Source: Macrostomum lignano
Lineage: Eukaryota
Direction: 5' to 3'
Assembly: GCA_002269645.1 (NCBI GenBank)
Contig: NIVC01000166.1
Span: 248,001-312,000, forward strand
DNA: 64,000 nucleotides
Part shown: in pieces, positions 3,550 to 61,400 of the stretch
Layout: the number at the start of each line of letters is the position of its first letter
How positions within the stretch are numbered: the first letter of the stretch is position 1
Made by a program: the position numbers and the translations under genes
Notes under the pieces: generated by a model
Told to the model about the DNA's origin: nothing
The model's input: only the letters and a program-made list of their open reading frames with translations
Database searches by the model: none

Positions 3550-3573
3550 ATATTTTTTTTGTCGGTGAAAAAA

Positions 3574-5548: not shown

Positions 5549-6596
5549 TTTTATTGAGAATTTATTTTTTTTTCAAAGGGTAAGGACCCTGGGTTAGGGG
5601 ATTTAAAGTCTTAGGGATCTGGTTTCAACGCTTCGGATTGAATGTGGGCCCCATGGGAGAAGAATGCAGATTATTTTCTGATTGTTTCGAAGATGCTATG
5701 GGTGGATGTTGGTGGATTATGTCTGTGTCAGTGAGCATAACAAGTGTCCACAGTGAGCATAACAGGTATCAGTGGACACCTGCTCTGATTCTGTCAGGGA
5801 TAATATGGATGGATTTAATGGGATTATGGAGGACGTTTTGTGAGCGAGTGCGACCCCCCTTTTTTTCTGATTCTGTCAGGGATAATATGGATGGATTTAA
5901 TGGGATTATGGAGGAGGTGAAAAATTTTGTCCCAGAAGCCCCCTCATGCCTTCTACTAGAGTGCCAGCTGATCATAAGAGAAATACGCAGAAATGAACGG
6001 CCCGCTGCTTGAAATGCCAATATGATGCACTTGACTTGATCTTTTGGTAACTCTGAATCGACAATTTGCCAATACTGATTTGGCTTGCTGCAATTTGACT
6101 TGAATATGCCGCACTTGAACAGATTTATTTTGCATTTATAAATCAGTTTAAAAGGCGCACCCAGTGTGAATCAAGGTAAAGACACAACCTGTCAAATGCA
6201 CTGAAGAAAGTGCATGATAAACTACAATACTAGGCCAGCCAAGTCGCCAAAATTTCCATTATAGATTTCGTTCGTAAATGCTCAGCTGCAACATTCCTCA
6301 GTCAGCGCTAAAGTTCAGAAGTTCACCAAGACAATAAATCCAAAATTTTATATTCAAAGTTGCAGCATTGCTAAAAAGTCAAGCGCCCATTGTGCTGCCA
6401 GGCAAAGAAGTTGCATTTTGTATTTCCTGAATAACCGGTTCAAGAATAAACAAAGCCGGGCGAGAAAGCAGAAAAACAAAAATCCAGTTGATAAATGCGA
6501 GAAAATTAGAGAAAAATGAAAATGCTAAAATAATAAATTTGCCGCCCGTTCAAGCTACTGTTAGTAGAAATGAGGGATTTTTAGAGAAATGAGGGC

Positions 6597-42699: not shown

Positions 42700-45600
42700 A
42701 ATAAAGTTCTAGTTGTTCCTGCAATATGTATTATTGTAATAAATCTTCCAATGGTGTAACCTATACACCCATACAATAAACTAATACAAGGTCAAAGGCA
42801 TGAGAGAATTATGGATAACAATGTTGGCATAGCAAATTGGGCTGACTTACAAGTACTTATATTAGAAATACAAAAAACTGCTATATACACTCTGTACAAA
42901 TGCAACCTATAAAATTAAACTGGCTATATGACTTAGGTGTGACTGAAAACCTACCAAATATCTTATTATAACTTAGTCTGCTGCTAGTGCAACTCAACTA
43001 CTCTTTTGTGACTTAATTTTTCTTCTATTGCAATTCACTTTGTTTTATATTCACTCTTTGATTATTATGTATAGACTTTTCTTTTTTGCTTACCTGTGCT
43101 ATTTTTATCTTTTTCTTAGGTTGTTTGTTTTCTTTTTTCATTTTTTAATTTTGGTTATCAATTTTGCAGCTTATCTTTTGCCTGCCTATCCTTTATTGGA
43201 CCTTGCAAACCACTTCTTAATGGTTAAAAATTGCTAAAGTAATAATAAAAACCTTTCTGACTAAAAGCATAAAAACATATAGCCTTAAGTTCATTACCTT
43301 TAATATTAGTATATCATATTATACTATGAGAATGAAACATTTTAGTTCAACCCTAGTGTTACATCATAAAAATAAATAAATTCATAATTTAATTTAAGTG
43401 TGCTTAATCCAAATTCCAAAAGCAATAATTGTTCTAACTTTACAAAGATAATTAAAGACAAAGTAGACTCCTAAGATAGCACTGAGCCTATACATTGCAT
43501 ACTATATTGATCTAATTGACTTTATTGATAATGACTATACATGCTTATTATGACTTGTCAACACTTAACTTAGGCGTACTCTCATACTAATACATACTTA
43601 TGATCATTCATTTTAATCTTGCACCCAAAACCCTATTTGCTCTTACATTACTTTATTCAACCTAAAAACCAATGCCTGTACCTAGTTACTTTAGTTTAAT
43701 TATTAAAATACTCATATTCAATCTAAAGTACTAGGTAGACAGAAGACAGCCACCATGCATACAATTAAAACACTAAGTGGATGGCTGCCATGCACACAAA
43801 TGCAAGCTTTCTGTATATAATATGCTAGGCCCTATGAGCATCTTTGTGAAGCACAACTTGCCAGCCAGTCAGCCTTTTTTATTGGCTCTGCCTTCTCATT
43901 TTAGTATTACTTTAAGATGTTTAAGTTAAATGCTAAGTGCCTATTTCATTATTTAAGGACATTGCACATTATTTTTACTTATCAATCAGGCTAGGCCTAT
44001 TCTATAAAATTGTTTATTGAAATATTTCATCATTGTTTGAGTGATTCTCACTATTAAAGGAGTCATAAAAAGCTTACTGAAAAATATAAGGCCCCAAAAG
44101 CATTAGTAGTAAGAATAAAAAACAGAGCAACTTTGTTTTTCAAGGCCTTTAGCCATAGAGCAACAACAGTCATGGCTATAAATCTATCTATCACTAGGCC
44201 TATCTTTACTATTTTAAGTATTTTATTATATACATATATTTCCTTGTAAATATTTATACATATTATTAATAATACATATAAATATGGTCAGACAATATTA
44301 TATTTATTTTTTCACATTCTTAAGATAATCGAGATACGAGATTTAATTGAGATTCATGAATTGGAAGTCAAGTCTTGATAGGTGAACGCAAATTACTTTG
44401 TTCGATTTTCTGCTTTATTTACGCGAAACGTTTAAAACATTTAAACAAAGTTTGTTGTAAAATAAAAGCTCTAGGCTATTTAAAGCTGCAGAAATGCGAA
44501 AAGTAAAAAGCTGTCAAGTTTTTTAAGCTGAGCCAAGAGTAGTTTTGATCGTAGCTAAGGCCCTGGGGTAAAATTTGCAATAATTTGCGATTACCCCCCC
44601 CTCCGAACAAACGTTTGGGAATACTGAGGTGGGGTGGAGAACAAAATAAATTTTTTTAATTGGTTTGGGTTTGTCGTTGGGTTGGTCGACACCAGTGAGG
44701 TGGGCGGATTCCACGTTTGAACCGCCGCCTGCGTACGTTGTCTCAACACTCGTAAAGCCGGAAAATTTCACGAATTGATGCGTTGTCGAGTCTTCTCCTT
44801 GGATACTCCGTCTGCCGGGGTCCTCAATTCCGGGGGGAGGGTAGTCGTAATCTTAGTCGAGTGGTCTTGTAGCGGCCCGGGTCGTTCAGAATGGGTCTTC
44901 AGACACCGTAAACTTCGGAATTCGTCGAAGATGCTCGTTTCGTTACTAACAATAGTAAAAGTAGCGCTGCCACCACCGTAAATGTCGTTTTACGGAACGT
45001 TGAGGGTCTCAGAGCTTTCTTTGAGTTAAGACAAACTGGTTATTTTACGCCCCGCGGGCAAAGAACTTAATATAAACTAGAGGCTTTGATTAGGTCCAAC
45101 TGGATAAATATTAATGTTAGAAGCTTTTATTATCTTATTCGTTATTATTATTATTATTACGGTCAACTAATTATTAATAAAGATGCTAACTACGTAATGC
45201 GCAGAAACTGCTGGGTTTTGGAGGTGAGGTGGGTGTCAGAGCCAATGCAAATTCAATGCCTATCTAAATACATTAGACCTCTTCTAATTGGTCCAGACCC
45301 TGTAAGTCATTATGTGAGACATTTATGCATGTAACTCTCATGTAAATCTAATTATACGTACATGTAATCACTGTATCGTACAGAAGCGACGAGTACAACA
45401 TAGTACGCATAATTAGCGCTTCACCGTAGCAGTTGTTGTACGTAGAAACGCGCGCGCCCCCATCCCCACACAATGCAGCATCGGTGTACGCAGAATTAAC
45501 TGTTCATATACCAAAAATTGGCAGAATTAACGCGCACCGACCCACCCCATAACGTCCATATTATTACTTGTCCATATTTACTGTCCATCCCAAAATTGTT

Positions 45601-46026
45601 GTACGCACAGAATTGTAGCGCCCACCCACCCCATAGCTGTTTATATACCAAACTTCGTGTTATACGCACAGAATTGTAGCGCCCACCCATCCAAGAAAAT
45701 ATTATTTGACCCCCCACAATTAATTGGCGGCCCCGCGCGGAGGCATGATGAGTCAGCCGCTGTAAATCGCCGCTATCCACCCCTCTGCCCTGCGCTGGCC
45801 GCTATAGCTACCAGCAGCAGTGTTACGCAACAACCCGGTCGAGCCACAATGCTAACTTTATAGCCAGACACGTCATCAAGGTCTGAAAACACAAACTTCT
45901 ATGCATGAAATATTCTCGTTTAACAAGATGCCAAACCAATTTTGTTCAGACAGCAAACTATAAATAAGAAAATTTGGATTCTCGGCCGTTTATCTAAATT
46001 CACCAAGTTCAATTAACAACCCAATC

Positions 46027-46230
46027 ATGTGGAAAACGCAGTGTTTGACAAGCAATTTTTGGTTGCCAAAGCACAAGAGGATCAGACCGACAAAGCATGA
46101 ACTGCCAACAACTTTGAGCAAGGATTTCAACACACCTCCAACGCCAGCACCGAAAATAGGTACAAGTCTCATTTTTTCTGGAATCCTCGATAACGACAAC
46201 ACCGTAAAAAGCTCGTTAACATGTAATTAA
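46027..46230 (+). pseudogene. Short duplicate of the C-terminal part of ORF 46386-46898
   Basis: NFWLPKHKRIRPTKHELPTTLSKDFNTPPTPAP vs NFWLPKHKRNRPPKLELPATWSKDFSTPPTPAP. Confidence 0.75.
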
Positions 46231-46385
46231 AACAAAAACTTATTGAGACTCTCGGGTATATAAGCACCAACCCGGGGCACCAAGCACCCGTACCTGCAAA
46301 TTTTTCTCGAATTCTCGGCAGTTTTTCAAGCTCAAATAACATCCCCACCACTAGTGCGAACAACGCAGCAAGTGCTTGACAAGAA

Positions 46386-46898
46386 ATGAGCTGGATTTCC
46401 AGAGACTACCCCCTATTATCGAACGAGGAAAAAGACGAATATGAGGCCTTGAAAAAATCTGCTGACTGGTTGTGCATTTGCCACAGCAAACCGATTTCCG
46501 AGCGATTAGTCACCTTCAATGCCAAGGTCGAGGAAATTGATCAAGGCCCCTACGACAGCCAAGACTACGCAGCAGCCAGGATAAATGAGCAACTACGGGA
46601 CAAAATGAGGTTCAAAACTGATTTAGCACGAATGGAGAGATTACTGGCTCCGATACTAAGTGAAGAGCATCGCCAAAAAATACGTTTTCGGAACCATCAA
46701 GATCTGTATAATCCGTCGTGGGAGGAGCAACAAAAGATTTGGAATTTTTGGCTGCCAAAGCACAAGAGGAACAGGCCGCCAAAGCTTGAACTACCAGCAA
46801 CTTGGAGCAAGGATTTCAGCACACCTCCAACGCCAGCACCCGAAAATAGGAACAAAAGGTTCATTTTTCCGGAATCCTCGATAACGACAACTCTGTAA
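46386..46898 (+). CDS. Maverick hypothetical protein (170 aa)
   Basis: ATG-initiated, preceded by TATATAAG at 46257. No recognised domain. Confidence 0.65.
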   Translation: MSWISRDYPLLSNEEKDEYEALKKSADWLCICHSKPISERLVTFNAKVEEIDQGPYDSQDYAAARINEQLRDKMRFKTDLARMERLLAPILSEEHRQKIRFRNHQDLYNPSWEEQQKIWNFWLPKHKRNRPPKLELPATWSKDFSTPPTPAPENRNKRFIFPESSITTTL

Positions 46899-47016
46899 AA
46901 AGCTCGTTATCGTGTAATTAAAACAAAAACTTATTGAGACTCTCGGGTATATAAGCACCAGCCCGGAGCATCTGCAAGCGCCCGTACCTGCAAATTTTTC
47001 TAAACAGACAAGAGAC

Positions 47017-47727
47017 ATGGAGACAGTGCAAGACTTCAACTGCGTCAAGCGAGAGCTGCTGGCACTCAAACCGCGAGGTCCGAGCTTCAACGGGGTTGAA
47101 ACGTTTGACATTGAATATGACGAACAGGGACCTCTCTACTTGGCCAATGCGGTCCCTGTTTTGATCGTCAAGGGCGTGCGTACTGACAACGAAGGTCGCG
47201 AATTCATCATCATTGCACAAAAACACATTGAAAGCTGCATACCCTACACTTTCAACACTGTGGCGGAGCACCTTTCCGGCGAAAGTCTAGCTCTGCTGGG
47301 CTACAACCCAGCGTTTGGAGGTGACAGTGCAGCGTTTGGGCTGGCTCACGACTTTAAAATGTACGACCAAAACGGACTGCCTGTAGAGGATTACAAAAAC
47401 AAGAGCGGCTACTACAGGATTCTGTTTACTCTCGACACGGCCGTGATTCGAGACGCTGTTTTGACCGCAATGCCAAAAATTCAACAGCTACAGTTTGTCG
47501 AAGAAGCCAAACAGGCATTCGATCGTTGCTATTGGACGCCACCTCCAAAAATCAAGGTAGGCGCCAAGAAAGTAAGCAAGAAAGCAAAGAAACCACCAAA
47601 GCTTGTCAAGGAGAAGCAGCCAAAGGTGCCTAAAAATCAGGCCAGAAAGCGACAGCATCAATCGAAACTAGTAGCAGCCAACGAATCAAAGAAGCGGTCG
47701 AAAGCCCCAAGAAGGATACGAAAGTAA
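47017..47727 (+). CDS. Maverick hypothetical protein (236 aa) with a Lys/Arg-rich C-terminal tail
   Basis: ATG-initiated, preceded by TATATAAG at 46948. Tail: KKVSKKAKKPPKLVKEKQPKVPK...RRIRK. Confidence 0.7.
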   Translation: METVQDFNCVKRELLALKPRGPSFNGVETFDIEYDEQGPLYLANAVPVLIVKGVRTDNEGREFIIIAQKHIESCIPYTFNTVAEHLSGESLALLGYNPAFGGDSAAFGLAHDFKMYDQNGLPVEDYKNKSGYYRILFTLDTAVIRDAVLTAMPKIQQLQFVEEAKQAFDRCYWTPPPKIKVGAKKVSKKAKKPPKLVKEKQPKVPKNQARKRQHQSKLVAANESKKRSKAPRRIRK

Positions 47728-47746
47728 AAACTGCCGAAAAATCTAC

Positions 47747-48226
47747 TTGCAGAACGTCGAGTGTGTGAACCGAGTGTTTTGCGCGAAATGGAGCCGCATG
47801 CCTGACTTGGACTGGGCGAGCGCACGGACATTTCGCAGACCAAGAGCTCTTATCAATTTGCGAATAGGAAAATGTACAATCAACTTTTTTCAGCGTTCTT
47901 TGTCTGCAATTGTATTCGGTTGTCGCTCAGTCAACCAAGTTTTGCGTCTTTTTCCTCAATGTAAACCAATTTCTGTTGTTGTTACCACTAGTACTTACCG
48001 CGCTGAAGTAGACAGATGGCCAAACTTTTTCCAAATTGCATACTCCGGGTCCCGCTGGGTGAAGTGGGAGTGTGAAGTTTTCAATGGAATAGTAATAAAG
48101 TCTCCATTTCGCAATGCTAAATGTTTATTATGCGGAAAGAATGGCCGCCTTGTTTTCCTTGGAATACGAAACTTTAAAGAGCTCTGTCAAATGTACGATC
48201 ATGTGACTAGCGTTTTGCATGTCTAA
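47747..48226 (+). CDS. Divergent TATA-binding protein (TBP)-like protein
   Basis: Two-repeat pattern aligned by eye to the TBP core: [12 protein letters not shown]~[38 protein letters not shown]~[41 protein letters not shown]~SGKMVCTGAKSEEQS; VNRV~QNIV. The start is uncertain (TTG 47747 or first ATG 47798). Confidence 0.7.
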   Translation: [159 protein letters not shown]

Positions 48227-48366
48227 TCCATGTAGCTGTTGCGTAACTTTACTGCTTCACCACTGTACCGAATTTGTATGTACGTACAAGCTGCTACGAA
48301 ATTGTCTATAAATATATTGTGCATAAATTGCAGTGCACTGCAACCAACATCTTTTTGCTAAACAAA

Positions 48367-48723
48367 ATGACAAACGGAATCTCCAGACTATGTTCTTGTC
48401 GCGGCGAGCTCGCAGAGCTCGCCAAAGCCCGTCCCACTCTTCGGCGGGCCATTATTCGAGGTGCAGGCAAGGAACTGATTCATTGTCTCTGTGAATTGAG
48501 TCACAACGTGCTCCGGGGAAATATCGATCTTTCTCCGAAACAGTATCTGCGATTAAAGCGATACAGAAGATCGTTGCGTGAATTGGCAGACACAAAATTG
48601 TCTATAAATAGGAAGAAGAATATGCTTCTCTCGAATCCTCAAGTCGGTGGCTTTCTACCCATCCTCGCATCTGTTGCTGCAACGCTAATATCAAGCCTGT
48701 TTGGCGGACTACTTGGTCGCTAA
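48367..48723 (+). CDS. Conserved basic Maverick protein with a C-terminal QVGGF motif (putative core/virion protein)
   Basis: KELIHCLCELSHNVLRGNIDLSPKQ...LR...QVGGFLPIL matches a family I recall from Mavericks. GG-F resembles an adenain cleavage site. Confidence 0.75.
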   Translation: MTNGISRLCSCRGELAELAKARPTLRRAIIRGAGKELIHCLCELSHNVLRGNIDLSPKQYLRLKRYRRSLRELADTKLSINRKKNMLLSNPQVGGFLPILASVAATLISSLFGGLLGR

Positions 48724-48724
48724 A

Positions 48725-49375
48725 ATGAATAAATACGTTGTTGTACCAGAAGAAGAATTTAATAGACTAAGTCAAGGCACACCCCGAGAAATTGCATCCA
48801 AAACAGAATATGAAAAACTCATTGAATACAACACTCAACTCCAAAATAAACTAAGTCAGATCAAGCAAAAGAAGAGTAATCGTTTTCCTGAACGACAACA
48901 ACGTGCTTGGGACATGCTGACAGAAAGATACCCAAATTTGGAGTACAACAAGTCGTGGGAAATTGTATTTGATGGAAAAACCTGGCCAGGAAGCAATATT
49001 TTCGATCTATTGAAGGAGATTACATCGAATGAAAGGCGCGACCGCCCAAGCCCAAAATATAGTACCGCTTTTTGGGCCCTGGCCGAAGAGGCAGATATTG
49101 CAAAAGCTCTACTAGGACGACGCCAACAAGAAGAAGTCAGTGTGAAAAAAGAAATCGGCACGGATCCGGATCGAGACGATTTTTTAGTCGAGCAAGCAAT
49201 TGGAACTAATGATTTCTACAACGACTTGCACAAAGACCAAGCCAGTGGCCTGAATGAAATTAAAAAATATGAAGATCGTGGCAGCGATGCCTACCGGCAT
49301 GCTTCATACCAACTCCGCGAACCAAAGAGGCGGCAGAAACCAGCAGTAAAATACGAGACGTTAAAAAAACTATAA
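48725..49375 (+). CDS. Conserved Maverick hypothetical protein
   Basis: N-terminal KYVVVPEEEF and internal WEIVFDGKTWPGSNIFDLL resemble a Maverick family usually found upstream of the integrase. Confidence 0.7.
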   Translation: MNKYVVVPEEEFNRLSQGTPREIASKTEYEKLIEYNTQLQNKLSQIKQKKSNRFPERQQRAWDMLTERYPNLEYNKSWEIVFDGKTWPGSNIFDLLKEITSNERRDRPSPKYSTAFWALAEEADIAKALLGRRQQEEVSVKKEIGTDPDRDDFLVEQAIGTNDFYNDLHKDQASGLNEIKKYEDRGSDAYRHASYQLREPKRRQKPAVKYETLKKL

Positions 49376-49512
49376 ATAGAAATCATTTTCATGATATATA
49401 ATCTGTTTTTGGATCATGGGTGCCGCAGCTGTAACTTCAAAGCTTTGCTCAGACAAACCGTCTGTGGAGTTCAAGTGTAATTACTCATGCTGTGCATCGA
49501 ATCTAGTTGCGA

Positions 49513-50579
49513 ATGAGGGTGAAAACCGCTCTTCGGAGAGTGTACGAACAGGGGGACGCCGCTTTTACAAATGCTGCCCGTGTATATCAGGAGGCCAAAC
49601 GGCTGGTCCCCTCCCTGACGAGACGCCAAACCGACGAATGGCTGAAGACCCAATCGAGCTACACCCGGCACAAGAGGGTTAAAAGAAAATTCCGAACCGG
49701 AAAAGTAATGTCAGGAGGCTTCATGGAAACTGTGCAAGCGGATTTGATGGACATGTCACGATACGAACAATGAATGATGGTCATCGATATATTCTAGTTG
49801 CAATTGACGTGCTTAGTAAATTGGCTTTTTGTCAGTCAATAAAATTGAAAAGCGACACTCCAAAGGCTTTTGAAAGCATGATCAAAGACTTCCCCATTAA
49901 GCCTTTATATCTACACGTTGATCGAGGTACCGAGTTTTATAACAATCGCATGCAGAACTTACTGAAAGCCCATAATATCAAAATGTACAGTACAAACTCT
50001 GTATACAAGGCAAATATGGCTGAAAGGCTGATTAGGACTCTCCGAAAACGTTTAGCTCGCTACTTTGAGCATAAAAACACGTGGCGTTGGATCGACTATT
50101 TGCCAATATTGGTTAAAAGTTACAACAACACAGTACACTCTACTATTGATATGAAACCTTCGAGTGTCGGTCTGCACAATCAAAAAGAATTGTGGGAAAA
50201 GCTCTACAAGGATCCTGAATATGATGAACCAGTTTACCAAAAAGGGGACTTTGTCAGAATTTCAAAATCTCGTCGAGCCTTTGACAAGGAAGCATACGAT
50301 ATGTACAGCGAAGAAGTTTACGTTGTGTCTCAAGTATGCCCGGGACCGCCTCATTTTTATCGCATTTCCGACCTATCTGGAGAACAAATCGAGGGTCGAT
50401 TCTACTATAATGAACTTTCAAAGACGGTTCGACCAGACCGCTTTGTTACAGACAAAATTCTGCGTCGCAATGTCATCATCAATGGTGTCGCTCATCATTT
50501 CGTTAGTTGGCGCGGCTATCCCGAGTCGTTCAATGCATTTGTACCAGTTGAGGAAGTTATAAATATAAGACAAGGATGA
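49513..50579 (+). pseudogene. Maverick retroviral-like (rve, DDE) integrase with C-terminal chromodomain; frameshift at ~49770
   Basis: VQADLMDM / NDGHRYILVAIDVLSK, LHVDRGTEF, AERLIRTL and chromodomain DKILRR...HFVSWRGYPESFNAFVP. The two ORFs join if one base is restored at CAATGAATGAT. Confidence 0.93.
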
Positions 50580-50613
50580 ACACACATACACTCGAAACGT
50601 GTAGTATATTACA

Positions 50614-51774
50614 ATGCATCTATTCCTACCTAGCAATGCGTGCGTTGAGCACTATCCTGAGAATAATTCGGCACATTATAGCATTAATTTGCCCGACACC
50701 CTCCACTTTCCGAATCATGAAGTCTGCATCGAACGGATCTACTTTTGTAAAGAATTCAAAACCGTCCCCGATAATCGAATGGTTGATGTCCTGACCAACG
50801 CTCCCGAGGATGAAGTGATTGACATTGAGGTGAGAGAAAAACCCGCCTCCGCGTATAAACAGTTTGCGTCGGTTTCTCTCGCCGCGGGGCTATCAACAGC
50901 CAACGAAGTGGTTGATGCAATCATCGCCGATCTAAAATATGAGCAAGACGATAATGCGATGATTTGCATTGAGCGTTCACAGGAAGGCCAAATTTCAATT
51001 GTGAACAAATCATGGTATGGTACATGGTGCGAACATTAGGCTGTCCAGTAATGTGCGTAGCATGTTTAAAAAGGTTGATGACGCTGGAAATAAATCAAAT
51101 ATCGAAGTAACGACTTTTTTATTAAACCCAAGAAATTCGTTAGTATTCGCTATAGAATTGGAGTCCTCCTCCTCCATAGAGAGTCCGATGACTCTAACGT
51201 TTGAAAAGAGTGTCTGGCCTTCTAGAACGTCACTGCGGATTGCTAAAGGATTCTACCGCACGCCTGATGAGCTCTTAAATTATGTTAATGGAGCGCTTTG
51301 GGGCGTCGTTTCAAAGCTCCCAATAAGTCCAGCGACGAGAGTGGATGCATTCCGCTACAACCCTTTTTGAACCGGTGTGAGTACAAACCCATTGAAAACA
51401 TTTTATTCGACATTGGAGAGCTTGCTGCCATTCTCGGCTTTCGCGAAGATGTTTTCAATGAAACTCCAAAGACCGCTAAACGACCAATCGATTTAACAAA
51501 TGGTGTACAAACTATGTACATCTATTCAAATATTGTCGACTCTGCCATTGTTGGAGACGTCAAAGTCCCCCTGCTTGGGGCAATTCCTTTGAATGAAAAG
51601 GTATACGGCGAACGAGAGTACTACGAGTTTGTCAATCCATCCTACTTACCGTTGGTAAAACACCCATTCAAAACCATTGAGGTGCAAATCTGTGACGATA
51701 TGGGCAAGTTAATGGATCGGATTCTTCGAGGCAAAACTGTTTTATCGATCAACATTCGCGAAATTAAGCTATAA
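50614..51774 (+). pseudogene. Maverick minor capsid (penton) protein, split by two frameshifts (~51020 and ~51365)
   Basis: MHLFLPSNAC...YPENNSAHYSINLP at the start. MYIYSNIVDSAIVGDVKVPLL...FVNPSYLPL...IEVQICDDMG...GKTVLSINIR at the end. Confidence 0.88.
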
Positions 51775-51818
51775 ATAAAGAAGTTTTCACGAATAAAAGG
51801 TAGCAACTGATCGACAAT

Positions 51819-52187
51819 ATGCCTTCAATCTTGATCGGAGGAGCTTTACCGGTATTTTCCGGTGCACAGCGCGGCAACGGCCTGTTTGGCAGCATTGCCC
51901 GATTTGCCCTGCCAATTTTAAAGAGTTTTGGCAAAAATATTCTTCGCCACGGAACACGAGCCCTAGCTACAACAGTTAGCGACATACTCGATCAAGGCGG
52001 GAACTTGAAAGAAGCAGCATTGCGTAACTCTGTCCAGGCAGCTAAAGATGCTTTCAAGGACACAGTCGCACAACGAGGTAGCGGCAGACAAAGACGAAGA
52101 AAGATGACTAGCAAAAAAACGAGAAAAAGACTGCAGCATTCTGATATTTTCGACTCTATAAATAAAAAAACCCGTGCCAATAACTGA
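51819..52187 (+). CDS. Maverick pVII-like core protein
   Basis: PVFSGAQRGNGLFGSIARFALPILKS and a second QRGSG followed by a basic tail. Typical position between the minor and major capsid genes. Confidence 0.8.
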   Translation: MPSILIGGALPVFSGAQRGNGLFGSIARFALPILKSFGKNILRHGTRALATTVSDILDQGGNLKEAALRNSVQAAKDAFKDTVAQRGSGRQRRRKMTSKKTRKRLQHSDIFDSINKKTRANN

Positions 52188-52230
52188 TCTGTCTATTAGA
52201 GCACCACACTAAGCCGCTGTTGAAAGAAAA

Positions 52231-52700
52231 ATGACTGAGTGCCTGTGTACAAAGTCGGAATTCGAGCTATTTGCTCCTCGCGCACACCAAATTGCTGCAA
52301 TTAGCGCTACCACTGAAGAAGTTCACCCTGTTGCCAGTGTTGAAAATGCCAGCGTGGTCGAATTTAGGATTGTTGGTGGTGAGACGTTTATCGATCTTAA
52401 CGACATTGACCTCGAGATTAAGGCCCGCGTTAAGCAGTCTAATGGTACAAATCTTGCTGCTGATTCGAATGTTGCGCCGGTCAATTACGTCCTTGAAAGC
52501 ATGTTTAAAAACGTCACGTTGACAATCAACGGGACACACGTAGAGTCGAGCAATAACAACCACGCTTACAAGGCCTATATTCGCACGTGTTTGAATTACG
52601 GACACGATTCAAAAACCAATCAACTGAGAATGATGGGCTACGCAAAGGACGCTGGAGGTCAAATGGCTGTGGTTGGAAATCCTGGCTTTGGAAATCCTGG
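52231..52700 (+). pseudogene. Maverick major capsid protein, N-terminal ~155 aa only
   Basis: TKSEFELF...EEVHPVASV...VVEFRI...FIDL...VAPVNYVLESMFKNVTLTING...HAYKAYI...LNYG matches the Maverick MCP pattern. The sequence switches to antisense Gypsy integrase after VGNPGFG. Confidence 0.9.
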
Positions 52701-55700
52701 AGAACCCTGTTGTCGCGCTGATGCTGCTTCTGTAGGCCAGGAGACAGTGCGGCAGGGCGTCCTCCCAGTCCGGCGGATTGACGGTCTGGAGGTGACAGCG
52801 CAGCATTTGATGAAGCGTCCGATGAAATCGTTCCACCAGGCCGTCGCACTGCGGATGGTAACCTGATGTTCGGGTCTTGTCGATCTCCAGCAGGCTGCAG
52901 AGACCTCGGACAATGCGGCCGTCGACGCTTCTGCCTCGGTCCGAATGGAAGACATGTGGAGCTCCCCAGCGCGCGATCCAGTGGCTGAACAACGCCTTGG
53001 CAATAGTTGCTGCCTTCTCGTCCGGCATTGACACCAGCTCCACCCATTTGCTGAAGTAGTCGATGATCGTTAGTAGACGATCGTTGCCATTCTTGGAGAC
53101 GCCGACCTTGACGACGTCGAACCCGACGCGCTGCATGGGGAAACCCGCTGTGATACTTTGTAACGGCGCACGTTTGATAAGCGGCGTCTTGGCTCGCTGG
53201 CAGACTCCGCATGAACGAACAGCCAGCCGGACGCTTTCGGCCATCTTCGGCCAGTAGAACCGCGCCTTGAGGCTGGCCAGCGTCTTGTCCTCGCCCAGGT
53301 GGCCGATGTTGTGGACCTCGTAGATGACGTCGCGCTGCTGACAGAGAGGGATGACCGGCACCGGCTTCGCGTTGACCAGGCGGTGCATGGCGCCGTTGAC
53401 GAAGCACAGATCGTGTACCTTTTGTGCCAGCACCAGGGTCTCCGACGGCACTTTGTCGCGCTGCCGATCGGTGAATCTGGTCTTGCCGTCGGCGAGCAGC
53501 CGGAACACTGGGCTGATGACTGGATCCTGAAGCTGCATTCTGCGTAGAGATGGTGGTCCGCTGTCTGCTGCTGGTGCCTCAGTCGCGTCGTCATCGCTGC
53601 TGTCTTCACTCTCACTGGTAAGCGGCTGTAGAATTTGCTTGCGCCTCGCCTGCATGGTGCTGACCTGGACGATGTCGTTAGCAGGCGCTGCTGGCGCCTC
53701 GGTGTCCGTTTGGCAAGCCACCGAGGAAGTCGTCTTTCTGATGTTTACTGGCTCCGGCCGACAGACTCGACATTGGTTGGTACATCGTTGCTGGACCCGT
53801 GATAGAGCGTCGGCGTTGTTGTTCTGACGGCCTGGGCGGAAGACAACCTTGAAGTCGTACTCGTCTAGAGTCTGCAGTCACCGTGCCAGTTGACCCTCGG
53901 GCTCCTTGAACGTCAGCAGATGTGTCAGAGACTGATGATCGACGCGGACGGTGAATGTCCGAGGCAGCAGGTACGTTCGAAACTTTCTGACATGGTCGAC
54001 GACCGACAGCAGTTCTCGCCTCGTCACGCAATAGTTGCGTTCAGCCCTTGACAGCGCCCGACTGGAGTACGCGATGACCCGTTCCTCGCCGGCCTGGACT
54101 TGAGAGAGCACCGCGCCAATGGCACAGTCGCTGGCGTCAGTGTCCAAAACGAACTCCGAGCTGTCTGGGCTGGTGTCCGGGAAGGCAAGGACTGGTGCTG
54201 ACGCTAGCGCCGCCTTCAGTTGGACAAATGCTGCCTCAGCCACTGGTGTCCACTGGAATTTCTCCGCCGGAAGAGTCAGGCGTCGTAGCGGTTCGGCAAT
54301 CTTCGAATAGTCCTGGACAAATCGCCGATAGTACGCCGTGAGGCCTAGGAAGCTCTTCACCTCCTTAGGGTTTCCTGGTGTTGGCCATGCGCGGATGACG
54401 GCAGTCTTGGTCTCGTCGACGGTGATGCCGGACTTGGAGACTCGATGACCGAGCACAATCATCGTCGAGTTGGCGAAACGGCACTTTGACGGTTTCAGCC
54501 GCAGGTTTGCCTCCCTCAGCCACTCAAGCACTGCTCGCAGTCGAGAATTATGCTCAGCGATCGTCCGGCCCATAATGATGACATCGTCGATGAAAACGAG
54601 GCACGCTTGCCAGGTCAGCCCTTGGAGCACCAGCTGCATAAGTCGTTGAAACGTCGCCGGGGCGTTGCGCAGGCCAAAGGGCATGACGTTGAACTCAAAA
54701 AGGCCTTGGTGACAGATAAAAGCAGTCTTTTCCTTGTCGCGCTCTTCGACTTCGACCTGCCAGTAGCCACTCTCCAGATCGAGTGCCGAAAAGTAAGCGT
54801 TGCCCTCCAGAGCGTCCAAGGTGTCGCCGATGCGAGGGATCGGGAAGGCATCCGGCTTGGTGACCTGGTTGAGCAGCCGATAGTCAAGGCAGAAGCGTGC
54901 CGTCCGATCCTTCTTCCTGACGAGCACGATCGGCGATGCCCACGGCGAAGATGACGGCCGGATGACGCCTTTCTGCAGCATGTCGTCGACTAGTTCGGCC
55001 TGTTTTTCGATGACCGGGCGCGCTGCACGTCGAAGGCCCTGTCGAATCGGTCGCGCTCCACCGGTGTCGATGTGGTGTCGTAAAACTGCTGTGCGGCCAG
55101 CGTTGCCTGGTGATGCGAAGACGTCGCAGAATTCCAGCAGAAGATCTTTGACAGACTGCTGTTCGTCGACCGAAATATCACTTTCGATTTTTATGCTGTT
55201 TAACCAGTCTGTCGTGTGTTGCAATGTCGCCGAAACCGAGACTACCGCCGTCGTCACCGCCGTGCTGCCAGCGGCCGTCGCCGCCGTGCTGCCAGCGGCC
55301 GTCGCCGCCGTGCTGCCAGCGGCCGTCGCCGCCGTGCTGTCAGCGGCCGTCGCCGCCGTGCTGCCAGCGGCCGTCGCCGCCGTGCTGTCAGCGGCCGTCG
55401 CCGCCGTGCTGTCAGCGGCCGTCGCCGCCGTGCTGCCAGCGGCCGTCGCCGCCGTGCTGCCAGCGGCCGTCTGGATTCGTGCGTGGCTACTGAGTGGTGA
55501 GAAACTGCCGATGATGTCGCCGTCGCTAATGCTGATGATCTGATCGCCGACGTTGATGACAGCCAGTCCCATTCCGCTGTCGGATAGCTTTGAGACGCAG
55601 CGACCGATGAGCAGCCCTTGTAGTTTTGTCCCGGTGACTATCCCAGGGGCGCCTGATTTCGTCCACGAGGCTTGCTGGGCTGGCTTGATTGGGATGATCC

Positions 55701-56110
55701 ACCGATCGCCTGGCTGCAGCTGAACTGAGGCCGCCGACACTAGCCTGCAGGTCTGCGCTGCTTCTTTGCTTTGTCGAGCCGGGATTGATGCACCTATGCT
55801 GTTGAAGGTGATGCAACCGGCCTGCAGATGAACAGAGACGTCGTGGGTGCTGAGGAAGTCACAGCCCAGGATGACGGATGCCGGATGCAGCTTCTCCAGT
55901 ACGACGAATCGATGTTGTACACGAACGATTCCAAGTGTCACTGTCAATGTTGTCTCGCCCAGCACTCGTTGCAAGTTGCCATCCACGCCTATAATGGTGA
56001 TGCTGCTGGGCTGCAGCTGCCGCCTGGCCTTCCAGTAGATCTCGGCGCCGATGCATGACACCTCTGCTCCGGTGTCGATCAAGCAGTGGCGCCGTCGTCT
56101 GAAAATGCGC
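52700..56110 (-). pseudogene. Gypsy pol (protease, RT, RNase H, integrase) with one in-frame TGA at 53878-53880
   Basis: LIDTGAEVS; SPWASPIVLV, LDLESGYWQ, MPFGLRNAPATFQR, FIDDV; DTDASD; HNIGHLG...CGVC, DRG, VERFHRTL. The TGA replaces the W of GQLARWL and the frame continues into the integrase ORF. Confidence 0.93.
55243..55470. repeat. 24-bp in-frame repeat x~9 (TAAGSTAA) between protease and RT
   Basis: Tandem copies of GCCGTCGCCGCCGTGCTG(C/T)CAGCG. Confidence 0.92.
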
Positions 56111-56161
56111 GCGGTGACGAAACGCGCCTTTCACGTTATTGGCGTAGAGGTTATGACCCTT

Positions 56162-56919
56162 AAAAGGGCAGTTTGACGAGAATTGTCGTAAGTTGTTGTA
56201 GTCCCAAAATGACTCAAAGCCAATTCTTGCAAAGCGGATTGTGTAGCGGAGCACTTGGCGTATAAGGGCAGGAAACTGCCGTAGCTAATTTATTGTCGAG
56301 ATCAGTATTAGACTGGTCAATATCAATACAAAACTTATAGTGTTCTGGGCACTGGCGGCTGCAACAATGGTTTTGAAGTGATTAGAATATGAAGTCGAGT
56401 AGCAGGCGAAGGATACAATGGCGACGCAACGTAGTGAGTGATGTCGATGAGCACAGTGAAGGCAGTGAGTAGTAAGTAGACAGGCAGATAAGTAGCGGTG
56501 AGAGTGGCGTTAGCCGTGGCAGTACACAGTGGAGTACAGAGTGTAAACAGGCTGGCCCAGACAGAGGAGCCGTGGCGAGAGATAAGGAGGCTCGAGGCAG
56601 CCAGGAGAGAGAGAAGGAAAACGAGACGAAAACACAAGGGCCGCAAGTGAAGACCCCCCAGGCCGCCGCCAGGCGGGGGTTAATAAAGGGGCGCAGAAGG
56701 GTTAGCATAAAACACGGAGAGTTTTCATTGGCTGGCGAGAGAACTTGAAATTATCGATCGTGCTAAAATTTACAGACGAACGCAAGGCCTACCAAATACA
56801 CAGTGAATTAGCCATTGATACAGATTATTTGCACGCTACTACAAGTAAAAGTTAAAATAAATTATTGGAGAAATTAAAATGAGAAATTGCAAGGGAAACT
56901 ACAGTCCAACGGCCCTTTT
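56162..56919. mobile_element. ~760-bp insertion between gag and pol with imperfect 16-bp terminal inverted repeats
   Basis: AAAAGGGCAGTTTGAC (56162) vs the reverse complement of 56904-56919, AAAAGGGCCGTTGGAC (14/16). No target-site duplication found. Confidence 0.45.
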
Positions 56920-56989
56920 GCGGGACCACTTATACTAGCAACGGCACACGCCTGACCAGGCTGACAGCTGCTGAGGCGTGGAGTGGAGG

Positions 56990-58115
56990 CCGAGTGTCTT
57001 AGTGCTGAGAGGGCCGGTGCTGGCCTCGCGGACCAGCCTTCTCGGCGTTTGGGCAGTTGCGTCGAATATGGCCGAGCTGACCGCAGCTGTAGCAGACTGT
57101 TTTCTCCAGTCGTTGCTGTCCTCCGGTGCTCGACTGCTGCGGCATCAGCGGTCTTGGTAGCTCAGTCGATCTTGGAGGCCTCGGTGGTGTTGGCGGGTAG
57201 GCGACATCTGCGGCTGCACTAGACCGGTACTCATGTACGCCCGCGTTTCCCGAAGCTGCTGGGCGAAGCGTAGTGCCTGCTCCACAGTGTGTGGCGGAGT
57301 TGCATGGTTGAGCAGTCGCTCAGTGACGTAGCTGTCGTTTAGGCCTTGCATGAACTGCTCGAGAACTATCTGCTGCACAAAGACCTGGGCTCCCGGGTCC
57401 GGATGGGCCCGAACAGCCAACTGTTGGAGCTCCGTCAGGTACTTCTCAAAGCTCTCGTCAGGTTTCCGATGTCAAGCACGGAACTCGCGTCGAAGAAGGG
57501 CTGCACTCTTGGCACCACCGTGACGTGAGCGGAGGTGTTCTACCAGGTCTTCGTAGTACACCCCAGGTAGCTGATCCAATGTTGACCTGGGCGGAAGACC
57601 GACGTACGCGCACTGCATTGCCAGCCAGGCAGTGTGTACGTTGCGAATGCCGGTCCGAGATAAGCTGTCAGGGTATTGACCTTCTCGATGTCCGGGAGGC
57701 CGGGGAATCGACCAATGTGAGCGCCGATCCTGACGAGGAAGTCGTCGAAGTCTTCACGACCGTTGTATGGCGGAGGATTGGGCACCGAAGACAGAGCAAG
57801 CCGGTGATTTGCCACTGGCAGCGCTGCATAAGCCAGGTTGTTAGGCGGGGCGTATTCCAGCTCCGGGACATGACGAGCTTGACGTTGAACGTGCTCATGG
57901 AACGGGTTTGTTGAATACGACTCCGGCCGTGTCGTCCGTGGATCTTCGTCTGCGATGAACGGGTTGGTCGATCTGCTGGCTGCTGCAGACACAAACGGGT
58001 TGTATGAACTCGAACTGGACGCGATGCTTGACTCGGCTGCTGTAGCTGCATCTGCCGCGTTTGCTCGTCTGACGAGCCGTCCTCGAAGCTCCAGGAAGTC
58101 GTCGTCGTTCCACAT
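56990..58115 (-). pseudogene. Gypsy gag, frameshifted
   Basis: PPPYNGREDFDDFL and QFMQGL capsid-like motifs, plus the zinc knuckle CYSCGQLGHIRRNC (~57055-57100). The pieces lie in different frames. Confidence 0.8.
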
Positions 58116-58130
58116 GATGAAACACTAGCG

Positions 58131-58139
58131 TGGTCGCCA
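58131..58139 (-). promoter_or_regulatory. Primer-binding site of the Gypsy element
   Basis: TGGCGACCA, 2 nt after the LTR-terminal CA and upstream of the gag ATG at 58115. Confidence 0.75.
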
Positions 58140-58499
58140 AATGTAGATACCCAAGTCGCCGTTTGAAATACGAGTGACGAAGTCGTGCAGGCAATTCTGG
58201 TCGGCTGTGCTCACTTAGCCGAGGGGAGAAAGTCTTAAAAGATTCCTGCTCAAACCATTACTGTATTTTTAACCATTGGCGATGTTTTGCAGACAGCGTG
58301 CGAGGCTTAAAAGCGTAATTCACGCGCGGGAATAAAATCAATTCCAGAATACATTCAAATATTTGGAAACTAAGCGAGTCGGAGAAAAGAATGCGACTGC
58401 GCAACGCATTTGTTTCCCGATCGATATTCAGATTGATATTCGAAAACTAACAAAATCTCTGCTCTGCAAAAATATTTTAGAACGCCGTTTGACAGGAAA

Positions 58500-61400
58500 A
58501 AAAGTGCAACCAAGAACATTGCAAAAATTAAGTTTCAGCTTGATCCATCACTCTGGCTCGAAATGGCACCGATTTTCGATGTGCTCCCATTTAAAATACA
58601 TGTGATTTTATAAGGCAGATCGATATTCGAGTTCGCTCACTTTGGCTTGACCATTCAACATGAAATTTTACACACTAAAAAGTGCAACTCAGAAACCGAT
58701 AAATATACAGTTTCAGCTCGATCAGTCATTCTGGCTCGAAATGGCACCGATTTTCGATGTGCTCCCATTTAAAATACATGTGATTTTATAAGGCAGATCG
58801 ATATTCGAGTTCGCTCACTTTGGCTTGACCATTCAACATGAAATTTTACACACTAAAAAGTGCAACTCAGAAACCGATAAATATACAGTTTCAGCTCGAT
58901 CAGTCACTCTGGCTCGAAATGGCACCGATTTTCGATGTGCTCCCATTTAAAATACATGTGATTTTATAAGGCAGATCGATATTCGAGTTCGCTCACTTTG
59001 GCTTGACCATTCGACTCGAAGTTTTGTTCCATTTTGATAGCAAACATTTTTTTTATCTTGCTCATTTATTTTACGCAGGAGGCAGAACATTGTTAAGTTC
59101 GGATGTTGGTGCATTCAGAAAAGTATATACAATGAGGAACGCGAAATCTATAGCTCTCGTATATAGCTCACAGAAGGCAGGTTGCGGATCTAAGTAGGGG
59201 TTGCAAATCTTATTCAGCTTCCCGAAGAATGGTGTTTCCTAAGCAATACTAAGCAAGCAGTACATTCTATTTATTGCCTCGTCTTGCAATTTCCAGCAGC
59301 TATGTGAGAATTACCTTACTTATTAAATTAAGACTTTAAGCAGGGGGGCAACAGCCCTCGGCCCCAGGGCCAGATCCAGCCCAATTCCAATCCGCCCCCA
59401 AGGCCCTTTTTGATCTAGCATTGCATTAGGCCCCACTCAAGAAATTCCTGGATCCGCACCTGACTGATGGAGTATGAGAATTTGTAATGGAAAAATATAA
59501 CAATAAAAACGGTGCGATTGCACGGACGATGAGATACGCGATTCATAATTCCTACTATACGATTGCCTGTATGCTTTAAGAAACAGTCTAGATGTACTCG
59601 TAAAATTAAAAAAGCGCTGGTTAAATTCACTAGTTTGCTGTTGCTTCGTTCGTTCAGATAGAAAATAAGTTTTGGCAGCTCGAACAGATAAAGGTGTCGG
59701 TCGGGCCACTGGCCACGCATTTGTCGTGGTACCAATTCAGGCAGGATGGGCATTCAATCTGTAGTAGGTAATTTAATTTCAGCGTTAAATGGGGTTTCCC
59801 CAACTTTTATTTAGCATATCAGTAATGGTTAATTACTTCCTTTTTAGCTTTTTTTGCCACTGTTGGCTACCTACAGTGAAATGGTTTTAGTACTAGCTAC
59901 TTATCGGCGATATATCGTTAATACTCGTAGATTAGCCTATTTCCGGAAATAACGACTTCAACGAAGAGCAGCATAACTATAGTAAATTTTTTATTGTACA
60001 AGATGTGACTCGTGAGCTAAAAATTCGAAACGTGACATGCATCGGTGACAATAGAACACTAGCAAGAGTCTATTTAAGTCCTGGATGTATTTTATGGAAC
60101 TCTAACAACATACTGGCGAAGCCAGCATAACGTGTTTGCCTCCTTCATCCACACATGTTAGGGTAGTTCTCAAATTAAGGTCATGATGTTTTGGTACAGA
60201 AAAAAAGTTTTCGAATAAAGTAATTGTTTTGTGAAAAACGATTATTTCGTCAATTTAATTAAAAAACTGCCATTAAAACCACAAGAAACTAAACATTTCA
60301 GACGAAATCTAGCAATTTGTTATTTTTCGCAACGGAGAATAAAACGACCAAAAATCGTGAAATAGTGCAAGTTTTCTTTAATTTTTATGGTTAAGATGCA
60401 TCTTTTATTCTATTTTTACTATTTAATAAGGATTATTTCAATAGAAAATGTTATTTTTAAATCAATATTTTGTTTTTTTCGTCTAAATTGCTTGTATTTA
60501 AAATTATCGCGTAACAAGAAACACCCGAAATAATTGTTATTGTACAACTCAAAGACTTGAATTATTGTACTTAGCACCTAAATATGAAGCTCAAAATCTA
60601 CAAAGATTGTTTCGCTAGAAATTAGGTTTACAAAATATGTCTTTTAATGCATTAAAAGTCTTTTGAATTATAATATATATAGTAAATGAGCTAGGACGCC
60701 ATTTCTTTTAAAACCTGAAATACATGTATCTTTTTTCGAACAGACTTGCGTTTTCTTTTGAAAAAAGAATTCAGCAAGCATTTATATTCTGCAACATAGC
60801 TTTTAATGCTATTTTACTATTTTACAATTTTCTTATGCAATTAGCTAGGCTGCACATAATAGAACAGCTTTATTAATTTAAATTAAGTAGTTTGGGCTTG
60901 GTAAGTTAATTGGCCTATTACAGACGTCTGACTCGGCAGCCGCATGGATCACTGTGAACCTCCTTAATCGATTCTGGTCCTGCACTGTCATGCTCGGTGC
61001 AATTCGTCTCATTTGATAACCACCGATGCCTGCAGAACTGACCACATCCAAAGTACCACTGTACAATGATGCGAGAGGTGTGCGGTTTGCAGTGCTTTAG
61101 CCAATTGGGTCAGTAGAATTAATTAATCGATCACATTAGAATAAAAGTAGATGTCGTTTGCTGTAAAAAGTAGACGTCATATGTAACAAACCAATAGCAA
61201 GACATTATTAGATGTCTTTCCCTTCTACTGATGCTCGCATCAGCTGGCTGCCTCCACAGGCCACAGCTCATCACATTCCCTGTTAATCGCCGCTCCAGTG
61301 CTGTCAGCCGCACTTAACTGTGTCCGGCCTCGGTAAATATAGAGTCAGTCCCAATGGAAAATCATCATCTAAAACATATCTAAAGCGTAAGTCAATCGAA

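Follow-up and report, generated by a model that had tools for sequence, protein, structure and literature searches.

Mavericks/polintoviruses do not encode an RNA polymerase, which raises the question of how the expression of their capsid genes is timed and co-ordinated. In this study, we addressed it with Maverick B, an element in a 64,000-nucleotide stretch of the Macrostomum lignano genome (hereafter, the window). Co-expression of the capsid genes is discussed in the accessible part of one paper, which gives no promoter or factor there (PMC11131425). On a Maverick promoter word or TBP circuit, our literature search, with most subscription papers and Repbase outside its range, returned only a 'TBP' label in a figure legend on MELD viruses, accompanied by no promoter analysis in the accessible part (PMC8502044; 10.1101/697771). 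A sequence-only reading of the window had proposed that almost every Maverick B gene has its own TATA box and that these boxes and a TBP-like ORF form a self-contained transcription circuit. Here, we name the cis words and a candidate trans factor of each lineage.

Maverick B is approximately 10.2 kb long, has TIRs and a 6-bp TSD, and carries every gene on one strand (Table 1). The window match begins at 45183-45189 in all 13 copies tested, the TIR is about 590 nt long in copy C594, and 6-bp target duplications are present in both copies with both flanks (C594 and C1070). The integrase (Pfam rve, E 7.7e-8 and 1.9e-9) is one ORF of 349-359 aa in other copies. Protease and pX are supported via homologues in other lineages, the pX-like ORF being 33% identical to a lineage II protein with a Pfam Adeno_PX match (E 2.3e-6), and the ATPase by a Walker A motif and weak AAA matches. 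The genes that we take to encode the major capsid, minor capsid and core proteins are labeled from order, size and motifs; the putative major capsid has no Pfam or PDB sequence match and is 29-33% identical to the capsids of polymerase-bearing lineages in the same genome. The element thus shares TIRs, 6-bp TSD, RVE integrase, pX-like, protease, ATPase and putative capsid genes with Polintons/Mavericks (adintoviruses, Polintoviricetes), and differs from typical members in its size, its single coding strand, its TBP-like gene and its lack of a protein-primed DNA polymerase. No DNA polymerase ORF was found between the TIRs of whole copies: the right TIR directly follows the ATPase in L033, L034 and L032, and the left arm holds only short ORFs. 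Other Maverick lineages of the same genome do have a DNA polymerase. The Maverick B family is a recently amplified, polymerase-less family with a full virion block, in which the capsid labels are putative.

Table 1 Features of Maverick B in the window.
Feature	Position	Strand	Remarks
Left TIR	45189..45780	.	element starts ACTAC at 45189; right edge approximate
TATAAATA box	45959..45966	+	first box past TIR; 68 nt to 67-aa ORF at 46027
TATATAAG box	46257..46264	+	duplicate of 46948; 129 nt to ATG 46386
ORF, 170 aa	46386..46898	+	orthologue in L031
TATATAAG box, candidate early promoter	46948..46955	+	69 nt to ATG 47017; kept at L031:2328
ORF, 236 aa	47017..47727	+	180-250 aa in other copies; possible first exon of TBP-like gene
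Splice-donor-like AAG/GTAGG	47554..47561	+	codon boundary after 47556; splicing inferred
TBP-like ORF	47747..48226	+	conserved part from TTGCAG/AAC (47747-47755), 5' of first ATG (47798)
TATAAATA box, intergenic	48307..48314	+	60 nt to ATG 48367; kept at L031:3476
pX-like ORF, 118 aa	48367..48723	+	box 48603 within its codons
TATAAATA, overprinted in S-I-N-R codons (LSINR)	48603..48610	+	122 nt to ATG 48725; sister codons identical, TCT ATA AAT AGG
ORF, 216 aa	48725..49375	+	stop overlaps box 49371
TATAAATA box	49371..49378	+	45 nt to small ORF 49416; kept at L031:4508
Small Gly-2, Cys-rich ORF	49416..49682	+	overlaps integrase start; conserved in sister family; no Pfam match
RVE integrase	49513..50579	+	two frames here; no own box; carries box 50558
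TATAAATA, overprinted in V-I-N-I codons (EVINI)	50558..50565	+	56 nt to ATG 50614; sister codons identical, GTT ATA AAT ATA
Putative minor capsid (penton) gene	50614..51774	+	three frames here; no Pfam match; label from motif, size, order
TATAAATA, overlaps stop	51770..51777	+	49 nt to ATG 51819; contains AATAAA; CTA TAA ATA in both families
Putative core protein with basic tail	51819..52187	+	box 52157 within its codons
TATAAATA, overprinted in S-I-N-K codons (DSINK)	52157..52164	+	74 nt to ATG 52231; contains AATAAA
Putative major capsid gene, 5' part	52231..52690	+	interrupted by LTR-retrotransposon-like insertion; whole copies encode 427 aa; label inferred

The nine boxes (seven TATAAATA and two TATATAAG) all lie on the + strand, which is the coding strand, and no TATAWAWR occurs on the - strand between 45900 and 52690. 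TATAAATA is the top 8-mer of the Maverick B region; the remaining window (57.2 kb) has 6 on the + and 4 on the - strand. Its 7 occurrences compare with 0.11-0.67 expected under Markov models of order 1-4 and were reached in 0 of 300 simulations at each order, while the 9 TATAWAWR were reached in 0, 0, 4 and 3 of 300. These data confirm the sequence-only reading on the coordinates and strand of all nine boxes, on the three boxes within codons and on the two across stops (49371 and 51770), and bear out the motif enrichment and strand bias for which it had proposed a test. Maverick A, as had been stated, lacks the pattern (1 coding-side and 3 opposite in 13.5 kb). The spacing of 40-135 nt to the next ATG holds for the gene ATG (45-129 nt), but the very next ATG is at +18 to +20 for three boxes. 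The claims that the TBP-like ORF alone is boxless and that the architecture is uniformly monocistronic do not stand: 9 of 13 ORFs have their own box, the integrase, protease and ATPase also lack one (the latter two as read in whole copies), and in all lineages examined the protease lies after the capsid stop or across it. The integrase ATG lies 142 nt from box 49371, behind the conserved small ORF 49416. An internal duplication gave boxes 46257 and 46948, where the sister family has a single copy, and the sister orthologue of ORF 46386 has no box.

The sister family keeps seven TATAAATA, including all three overprinted boxes, and has CATAAATA ahead of its first gene. Four-fold sites are identical between the families in only 218 of 582 cases (37%) and two-fold sites in 351 of 555, and every synonymous position within the three embedded boxes is kept (about 0.003, calculated by hand from site rates). 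The expected conservation of the S-I-N codons is borne out for the boxes and fails for one residue, since box 52157 is kept despite a change from Ser to Thr (TCT to ACT). Because they are kept in the sister family despite largely diverged synonymous sites, the Maverick B boxes are under selection. Codon resampling gave 0.16 TATAAATA inside coding sequence vs 3 observed (0/2000), and TATAAAT is the coding of x-I-N in 6 of the 14 instances close to gene ends but in 0 of the 9 others (P 0.048). Among copies 94-99% identical (for each box 20-24 aligned loci, with the window and split pieces included), a comparison with little power, variants affect only boxes 45959 and 46948 and the A-run of 52157. 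With selection shown, we infer that the boxes are very probably TATA-type core promoters.

The assignment of the TBP-like ORF is upheld: a TBP fold is supported by Pfam on the sister-family orthologue (E 8.5e-5, 22.8 bits vs a cut-off of 22.9), by a PDB profile search (13 of 14 matches TBP, all weak) and by two fold searches. As a single sequence, the window ORF has nothing in Pfam or PDB and no usable Atlas match. A model built from four of its own homologues has a pLDDT of 48, and TBPs rank first in its fold search; one built from an alignment including true TBPs has a pLDDT of 86 (fold search E 7e-10). Like cellular TBP and TRF2, the predicted protein is a two-repeat saddle (TM about 0.75-0.8 to TBP structures), and TATAAATA and TATATAAG fit TATAWAWR; unlike them, it is a sequence of 15-18% identity with several DNA-facing residues altered, and the sister-family ORF has no ATG at its N-terminal start. 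It is the most diverged of the Maverick TBP-like proteins, with two of four intercalating Phe, one of two Asn and no Pro in an alignment read by eye. KSHV ORF24, in the accessible part of the sources, requires all four Phe (PMC4893493; 10.1101/2025.08.25.672222). Alignment with host TBP by hhalign was weak (probability 4.9, E 0.008), and a midpoint-rooted tree places the Maverick proteins together, apart from host TBP and TRF2 (support 100/98). The ORF is 78% identical between families and 67-68% to outside homologues; no fused or longer homologue appeared among 124 candidates, which is weak evidence.

Upstream, residues 1-180 of ORF 47017 are 75% identical to the sister family and the tail is variable; Pfam gave no match and the Atlas no usable one. 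The splice-donor-like site within it is kept in 19 of 19 aligned loci and in the sister family. None of the listed data sets that contain the sequence is recorded as RNA. Contigs of four runs presumed to be RNA have no GT-AG joint, are unspliced across the proposed intron and lack start or end pile-ups; contigs can show neither rare joints nor starts.

We compared four Maverick lineages with a TBP-like gene and one without, all from one genome. All of lineages I-IV have TBP-like ORFs, and each has its own word: TATAAATA in lineage I, TATAAGC/T (TATAAGCA) in II, CTTAAGAA in III and TATAAGAA in IV. In a de novo count, each ranks first among the 7- or 8-mers of its own lineage and is almost missing from the others, and Maverick A, from TIR to TIR, has neither a TBP-like ORF nor such a word. 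Counts on the coding and opposite strands were 7/0 and 7/0 in the two lineage I families, 22/2 in four lineage III elements, and 3/0 for TATAAGAA and 2/0 for TTAAGAA in lineage IV; in five lineage II families, TATAAG[CT] was found 34/1 in structural and 0/2 in early modules. Words II-IV have G at position 6, which lies outside TATAWAWR. The proline of TBP favours T at position 1 of the box, according to the accessible part of published work. This residue is kept in lineage II, whose word starts with T, and missing in I, III and IV, of which III starts with C. As a point against reading by the element's own factor, divergence of protein and of word do not track: the TBP most similar to that of the host (Pfam E 7.9e-25) belongs to lineage III, whose word is the least canonical. 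The TBP-like gene has its own box in lineages III and IV and not in I and II. Tyr-Lys in lineage II is encoded as TATAAG in 7 of 9 cases near gene ends vs 0 of 25 elsewhere (P 7e-6), and the Leu-Arg coding bias in lineage III is not significant (7/28 vs 4/47, P 0.09). The 4 Leu-Arg cases of lineage III are the box before the overlapped TBP gene.

Out-of-frame ATGs suggest where transcripts may begin. For 18 boxes of two related families, they are tolerated at +8 to +24 (6 vs 3.2 expected) and depleted from +30 (1 vs 6.1, P 0.016); in lineage II, they are not depleted at +8 to +24 (3 vs 3.6) and are depleted from +30 (4 vs 9.9, P 0.03). This spacing would fit transcription beginning about 25-30 nt past the boxes. 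An initiator signal at +30 is weak in lineage I (9/19, P 0.024) and absent from lineages II (3/33) and III (7/29).

We propose, with a probability of roughly 0.5, that Maverick B combines TATA promoters with an early-to-late switch through its own TBP-like protein. Each transcription unit would have one box, which is overprinted on the preceding gene wherever the element is densely packed, and host RNA polymerase II would start about 25-30 nt past it. The host-read TATATAAG at 46948 would drive ORF 47017, and the TBP-like protein would be made from this unit, probably by splicing or a non-AUG start. It would then occupy the box shared in the lineage (TATAAATA), replacing or preceding host TBP, an assignment for which we see about even chances, and the virion-gene block would be switched on together, as by vTBP in beta/gamma-herpesviruses. 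The protease would be a second cistron on the capsid message and the integrase on the small-ORF message, and DNA replication would be supplied by a helper. The proposed self-contained circuit is plausible and is strengthened by the lineage-by-word pattern; it is not fully self-contained because the ORFs of Maverick B include neither an RNA nor a DNA polymerase, and its word is host-TBP-readable. Somewhat more tentatively, animal Mavericks may have their own programme for late-gene transcription, in which each lineage possesses a minimal TBP mimic co-evolved with its own TATA variant, overprinted before the virion genes. Such mutually insulated circuits of Maverick families that share one genome and host Pol II would be a convergent, one-protein form of the herpesvirus vPIC and natural orthogonal TBP-promoter pairs, with the window family a polymerase-less satellite keeping the circuit.

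In beta/gamma-herpesviruses, vTBP (KSHV ORF24, EBV BcRF1, CMV UL87) serves TATT/TATTWAA promoters, as described in the accessible part of the sources (PMC4893493; 10.1101/2025.08.25.672222). Both systems have an element-encoded, highly diverged TBP fold, uniform minimal variants of the TATA box ahead of structural genes, a canonical one at early genes and, as proposed here, host Pol II. Herpesvirus vTBP is large and multi-domain, whereas the Maverick protein is a stand-alone core of about 160-190 aa, whose word varies by lineage and is canonical in lineage I, and the Maverick system is described here from its sequence. Homologues of the five herpes vPIC partner proteins were not recognised among Maverick B ORFs, and we claim no herpes kinship.

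Alternatively, the boxes could be ordinary strong TATA promoters for host TBP/TFIID and the TBP-like protein a decoy (TFIIB/NC2/Mot1), a repressor or a decaying passenger, which we consider rather unlikely. TATAAATA is canonical and host TBP is intact, so that lineage I needs no element factor, which counts against reading by its own; the changes on the DNA-binding face of its TBP-like protein and the weak +30 initiator signal confined to this lineage point the same way. However, the TBP-like ORF is conserved, and host TBP leaves unexplained why sister lineages have fixed non-canonical words confined to structural modules and why one exact 8-mer, not any TATAWAWR, recurs 7/7 in both families.

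It is improbable that the words are read by the machinery of a helper, be it a large DNA virus or a Maverick that has a polymerase. Giant viruses recognise the promoters of their virophages, the TAAG of words II-IV (present as [AT]TAAG) is similar to the late promoter of baculoviruses, and Maverick B, without a DNA polymerase, needs a helper. However, polymerase-bearing lineages use words other than that of the Maverick B family, every one of lineages I-IV has its own TBP-like gene, and the depletion of lineage II ATGs only from +30 argues against initiation within TAAG. Giant-virus TBP-like proteins, the best viral fold matches of the Maverick protein, act with viral RNA polymerase. Maverick B resembles the giant-virus and virophage case in this fold and as a small element of DJR type in which one promoter word recurs, but it differs in being integrated into an animal genome and in encoding a factor of its own.

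The reading of the motif as a signal for the 3' end of the preceding gene, by polyadenylation or termination, has still poorer prospects. The motif lies near gene ends, and two of the seven window boxes, like four of seven in the sister family, contain AATAAA, but the other five window boxes and words II-IV lack it, no gene lies upstream of 45959, box 48603 is 120 nt before the stop of its gene, and ATG depletion points downstream. Polyadenylation as the sole role is rejected; dual use as promoter and 3'-end signal at some junctions is possible. Chance, AT content or amino-acid constraint, favoured by nothing beyond the post hoc choice of motif, is negligible against the simulations, codon resampling, lineage matrix and codon-use contrasts, and was rejected on cross-family synonymous conservation.

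If the proposed switch is true, late transcription through a TBP mimic would have originated a second time, independently, and the switch would provide a sequence mark for particle-forming Mavericks and natural variants of TBP whose specificity is shifted. Should host TBP suffice, two things would still merit record: the candidate overprinted promoters with their synonymous constraint, and a polymerase-less Maverick family that has recently amplified and has a full virion block. Rfam gave no match within 45000-53000, and four viral scans and one metagenome scan returned no relatives with flanking DNA outside the host genome. Scans outside this genome yielded one 2.8-kb capsid match at 21% (L090).

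All nine boxes that a sequence-only reading had placed in the Maverick element of the window (lineage I) are present on the plus strand, and none occurs on the minus strand of 45900-52690. Seven copies of TATAAATA are observed against 0.11-0.67 expected under Markov models of order 1-4, a count met by 0 of 300 simulations at each order, which bears out the expected enrichment; the rest of the window (57.2 kb) holds six on the plus and four on the minus strand. The two TATATAAG boxes are copies of one internal duplication, as read directly from the sequence. AATAAA is also present within two of the seven window boxes and four of seven in the sister family F2.

Coordinates of features in the window
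Feature	Position	Strand	Distance to gene ATG (nt)	Remark
Maverick A	1-5950	both
Minisatellite arrays	7000-42400			many; 8-43 bp units
517-aa ORF	35347-36900	-		host gene; Neurochondrin match (Pfam E 2.6e-9)
Left end of element	45189
Box TATAAATA	45959	+	68
Box TATATAAG	46257	+	129
Box TATATAAG	46948	+	69
TBP-like ORF	47747-48226	+
Box TATAAATA	48307	+	60
Box TATAAATA	48603	+	122
Box TATAAATA	49371	+	45
Small Gly-2, Cys-rich ORF	49416-49682	+		overlaps integrase start
Box TATAAATA	50558	+	56
Box TATAAATA	51770	+	49
Box TATAAATA	52157	+	74
LTR-retrotransposon-like element	52690-58150	-		inside capsid gene
178-bp tandem repeat arrays	58488-59025; 62931-64000			inverted, about 4 kb apart, 94-98% complementary

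A 7.3-kb query has at least 31 matches in this animal genome (G000), and at least 15 are almost complete, at 97-100%. The family is about 10.2 kb long with TIRs of about 590 nt, and 6-bp target duplications are found in both copies that have both flanks covered. On a single strand follow short ORFs, ORF 47017, the TBP-like ORF, a pX-like gene, ORF 48725, the small Cys-rich ORF overlapping the integrase, putative penton, core, major capsid, protease, ATPase and the right TIR. We take the capsid, penton and core labels from gene order, size and motifs; these proteins have no match in Pfam or PDB sequence searches. The family is best called a non-autonomous Maverick, since it has no DNA polymerase gene, one Polinton criterion in the accessible text of PMC5499653. 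The window copy is broken, with the integrase split over two frames, the penton over three and the capsid gene interrupted by the LTR-retrotransposon-like insertion at about 52690 (read by eye); only the first 153 aa of the capsid match there, and the rest of the Maverick was not found adjoining the insertion. Where the window's family has the internal duplication, the left arm of F2 (L031:612-1391) has a Fic-domain gene (Pfam E 6.6e-14) together with another ORF of 117 aa.

F2 (L031, L052) shares 78% identity with the window's family in the TBP-like protein and 88% in the capsid. Seven TATAAATA and one TATATAAG lie upstream of its gene starts, and CATAAATA precedes its first gene. At four-fold synonymous sites the families agree in only 218 of 582 cases, and at two-fold sites in 351 of 555, whereas the three embedded boxes retain every synonymous position (about 0.003 by hand calculation), one despite a Ser-to-Thr change. 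Codon resampling gave 0.16 and 0.24 boxes within coding sequence for the two families against three and three seen, reached in 0 and 1 of 2000 runs. The boxes are under selection, with strand and position bias.

The boxes very probably act as promoters. Around 18 boxes of both families, which are not independent, out-of-frame ATGs are free at +8 to +24 (6 vs 3.2 expected) and depleted between +30 and the gene start (1 vs 6.1, P 0.016), suggesting that transcripts start at about +25 to +30, the spacing of a TATA box. At +30 an initiator-like YR shows only weak enrichment (9/19, P 0.024).

The uniform monocistronic architecture proposed earlier, with the TBP-like ORF alone boxless, is overstated: 4 of 13 ORFs have no box of their own (TBP-like, integrase, protease and ATPase). 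The box at 49371 first serves the small ORF at 49416, which is conserved in F2. In lineage II a box lies about 230-270 nt before the integrase with an earlier ATG in between, so small ORFs of this kind may be widespread. The protease, boxless after or overlapping the capsid stop in lineages I, II and III, suggests a second cistron.

As a single query, the window TBP-like protein has no Pfam or PDB match; its F2 orthologue matches Pfam TBP at E 8.5e-5, just under the cut-off. A four-sequence profile gave 14 PDB matches, all weak, 13 being TBPs, and also an archaeal-type TBP among 4 matches. In a low-confidence model built without true TBPs, TBP structures rank first; a second model (pLDDT 86, TM 0.72-0.81 to TBP structures) is biased by true TBPs in its alignment. 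By our alignment reading, the protein keeps two of four intercalating Phe and one of two Asn, and not the Pro.

The conserved part of this ORF already starts ahead of its first ATG, and F2 lacks an ATG at this place. ORF 47017, just upstream, has a donor-like AAG/GTAGG on a codon boundary; this site and an acceptor-like TTGCAG/AAC before the TBP-like domain flank the variable tail of ORF 47017, and both are kept in 19/19 aligned loci and F2. From these sites, the domain may be exon 2 of a gene behind the box at 46948, which would account for its lack of a box. Alternatively, translation may start at TTG, or trans-splicing may supply the start, should the host possess a leader that ends in AUG; PMC9851317 mentions leaders of this type. 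In lineage II (L054:5128, L075:4049, L077, L056:3854) the TBP-like frame opens at a codon boundary upstream of the first ATG, directly after a pyrimidine tract and AG, suggesting a start supplied by splicing or trans-splicing; L076 appears broken there.

Further lineages were reached by genome searches with pX-like, capsid and Pfam TBP queries, the last giving at least 150 matches, mostly multi-copy. The pairing of boxes and TBP-like ORF is wider than previously reported, the ORF being present in 5/5 polymerase-bearing lineage II families examined and in lineages III and IV. On coding/opposite strands, TATAAG[CT] counts 34/1 in lineage II structural modules (TATAAGC 27 vs 1.9 expected) and 0/2 in early modules, CTTAAGAA 22/2 in lineage III (0.6 expected), and TATAAGAA 3/0 and TTAAGAA 2/0 in one lineage IV element; TATAAATA counts 0-1 in each. 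Left out were degraded lineage II loci (L048, L049, L051) and lineage III loci for which just one half was used (L061, L062, L064, L066, L067, L070-L072, L078-L080, L085). The lineage word lies 25-170 nt, mostly 40-60 nt, upstream of 23/46 listed gene starts in II and 20/27 in III, where the list omits first genes and a number of broken starts. Overprinting is seen here as well: near lineage II gene ends TATAAG encodes Tyr-Lys in 7/9 cases, vs 0/25 elsewhere. First genes of II and III, in III a PC4 homologue, are preceded by canonical TATATAAG, TATAAAAG or TATAAATA. The words are lineage-specific, with TBP-fold genes in the same elements. A midpoint-rooted tree of 20 rows groups the TBP-like proteins of I and II in a single clade and separates them from those of III and IV and from cellular TBPs (100/98), indicating that they have long been resident. 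Because families of the same lineage are related, the count is four lineages, not independent events.

Polymerase-bearing Mavericks at L042-L046 (G000 C593, C2529, C3758, C4948, C297) have TATAAG[CT]AA ahead of penton, pX, core, capsid and dUTPase genes, and the word is overprinted as TAT AAG TAA where the integrase ends. In the large lineage with CTTAAGAA boxes (L061-L072, L079-L085), the first gene encodes a PC4 coactivator and follows a canonical TATA, the upstream ORF overlaps a clear TBP gene, and a probable polymerase gene lies on the other strand.

We put at about 0.5 the reading in which the TBP-like protein reads the boxes: an early canonical promoter would make the factor, which would read the lineage word and activate the virion genes through host Pol II. 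The circuit suggested earlier is plausible in this form, and its self-containment was overstated. It is weakest for the window's family, because TATAAATA is canonical, the host TBP gene is intact and the DNA face of its factor has changed most; the same points favour host TBP alone reading the boxes, which we regard as less likely. Lineage III shows the opposite pairing. Helper machinery reading the boxes is improbable. Host TBP and a TRF2-like gene (L073, L074) each have an intron-free core in three near-identical copies.

Late transcription in beta/gamma-herpesviruses is the nearest working model: there a viral TBP mimic acts on TATT boxes (PMC4893493, 10.1101/2025.08.25.672222). The window's family is not a member of that system, with no partner protein recognised among its ORFs and no herpes ancestry. 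MELD viruses have a TBP label in the figure legends available (10.1101/697771, PMC8502044), and the available portions of PMC11131425, PMC12220804 and 10.64898/2026.06.19.733378 mention VLTF3 or co-expression, and neither TBP nor a promoter word. No description of Maverick promoter words was found in the literature searched, which largely excludes subscription journals.

Maverick A, covered by L088 and its part in the window, has no TBP-like ORF, and the box pattern is absent from the counts there, as first noted. With both TIRs, it carries polymerase, integrase, PLA2-like, protease and capsid genes on both strands; no TATA-like word is seen, and A-rich runs often lie ahead of starts. A piece of another copy abuts the lineage II element at L049.
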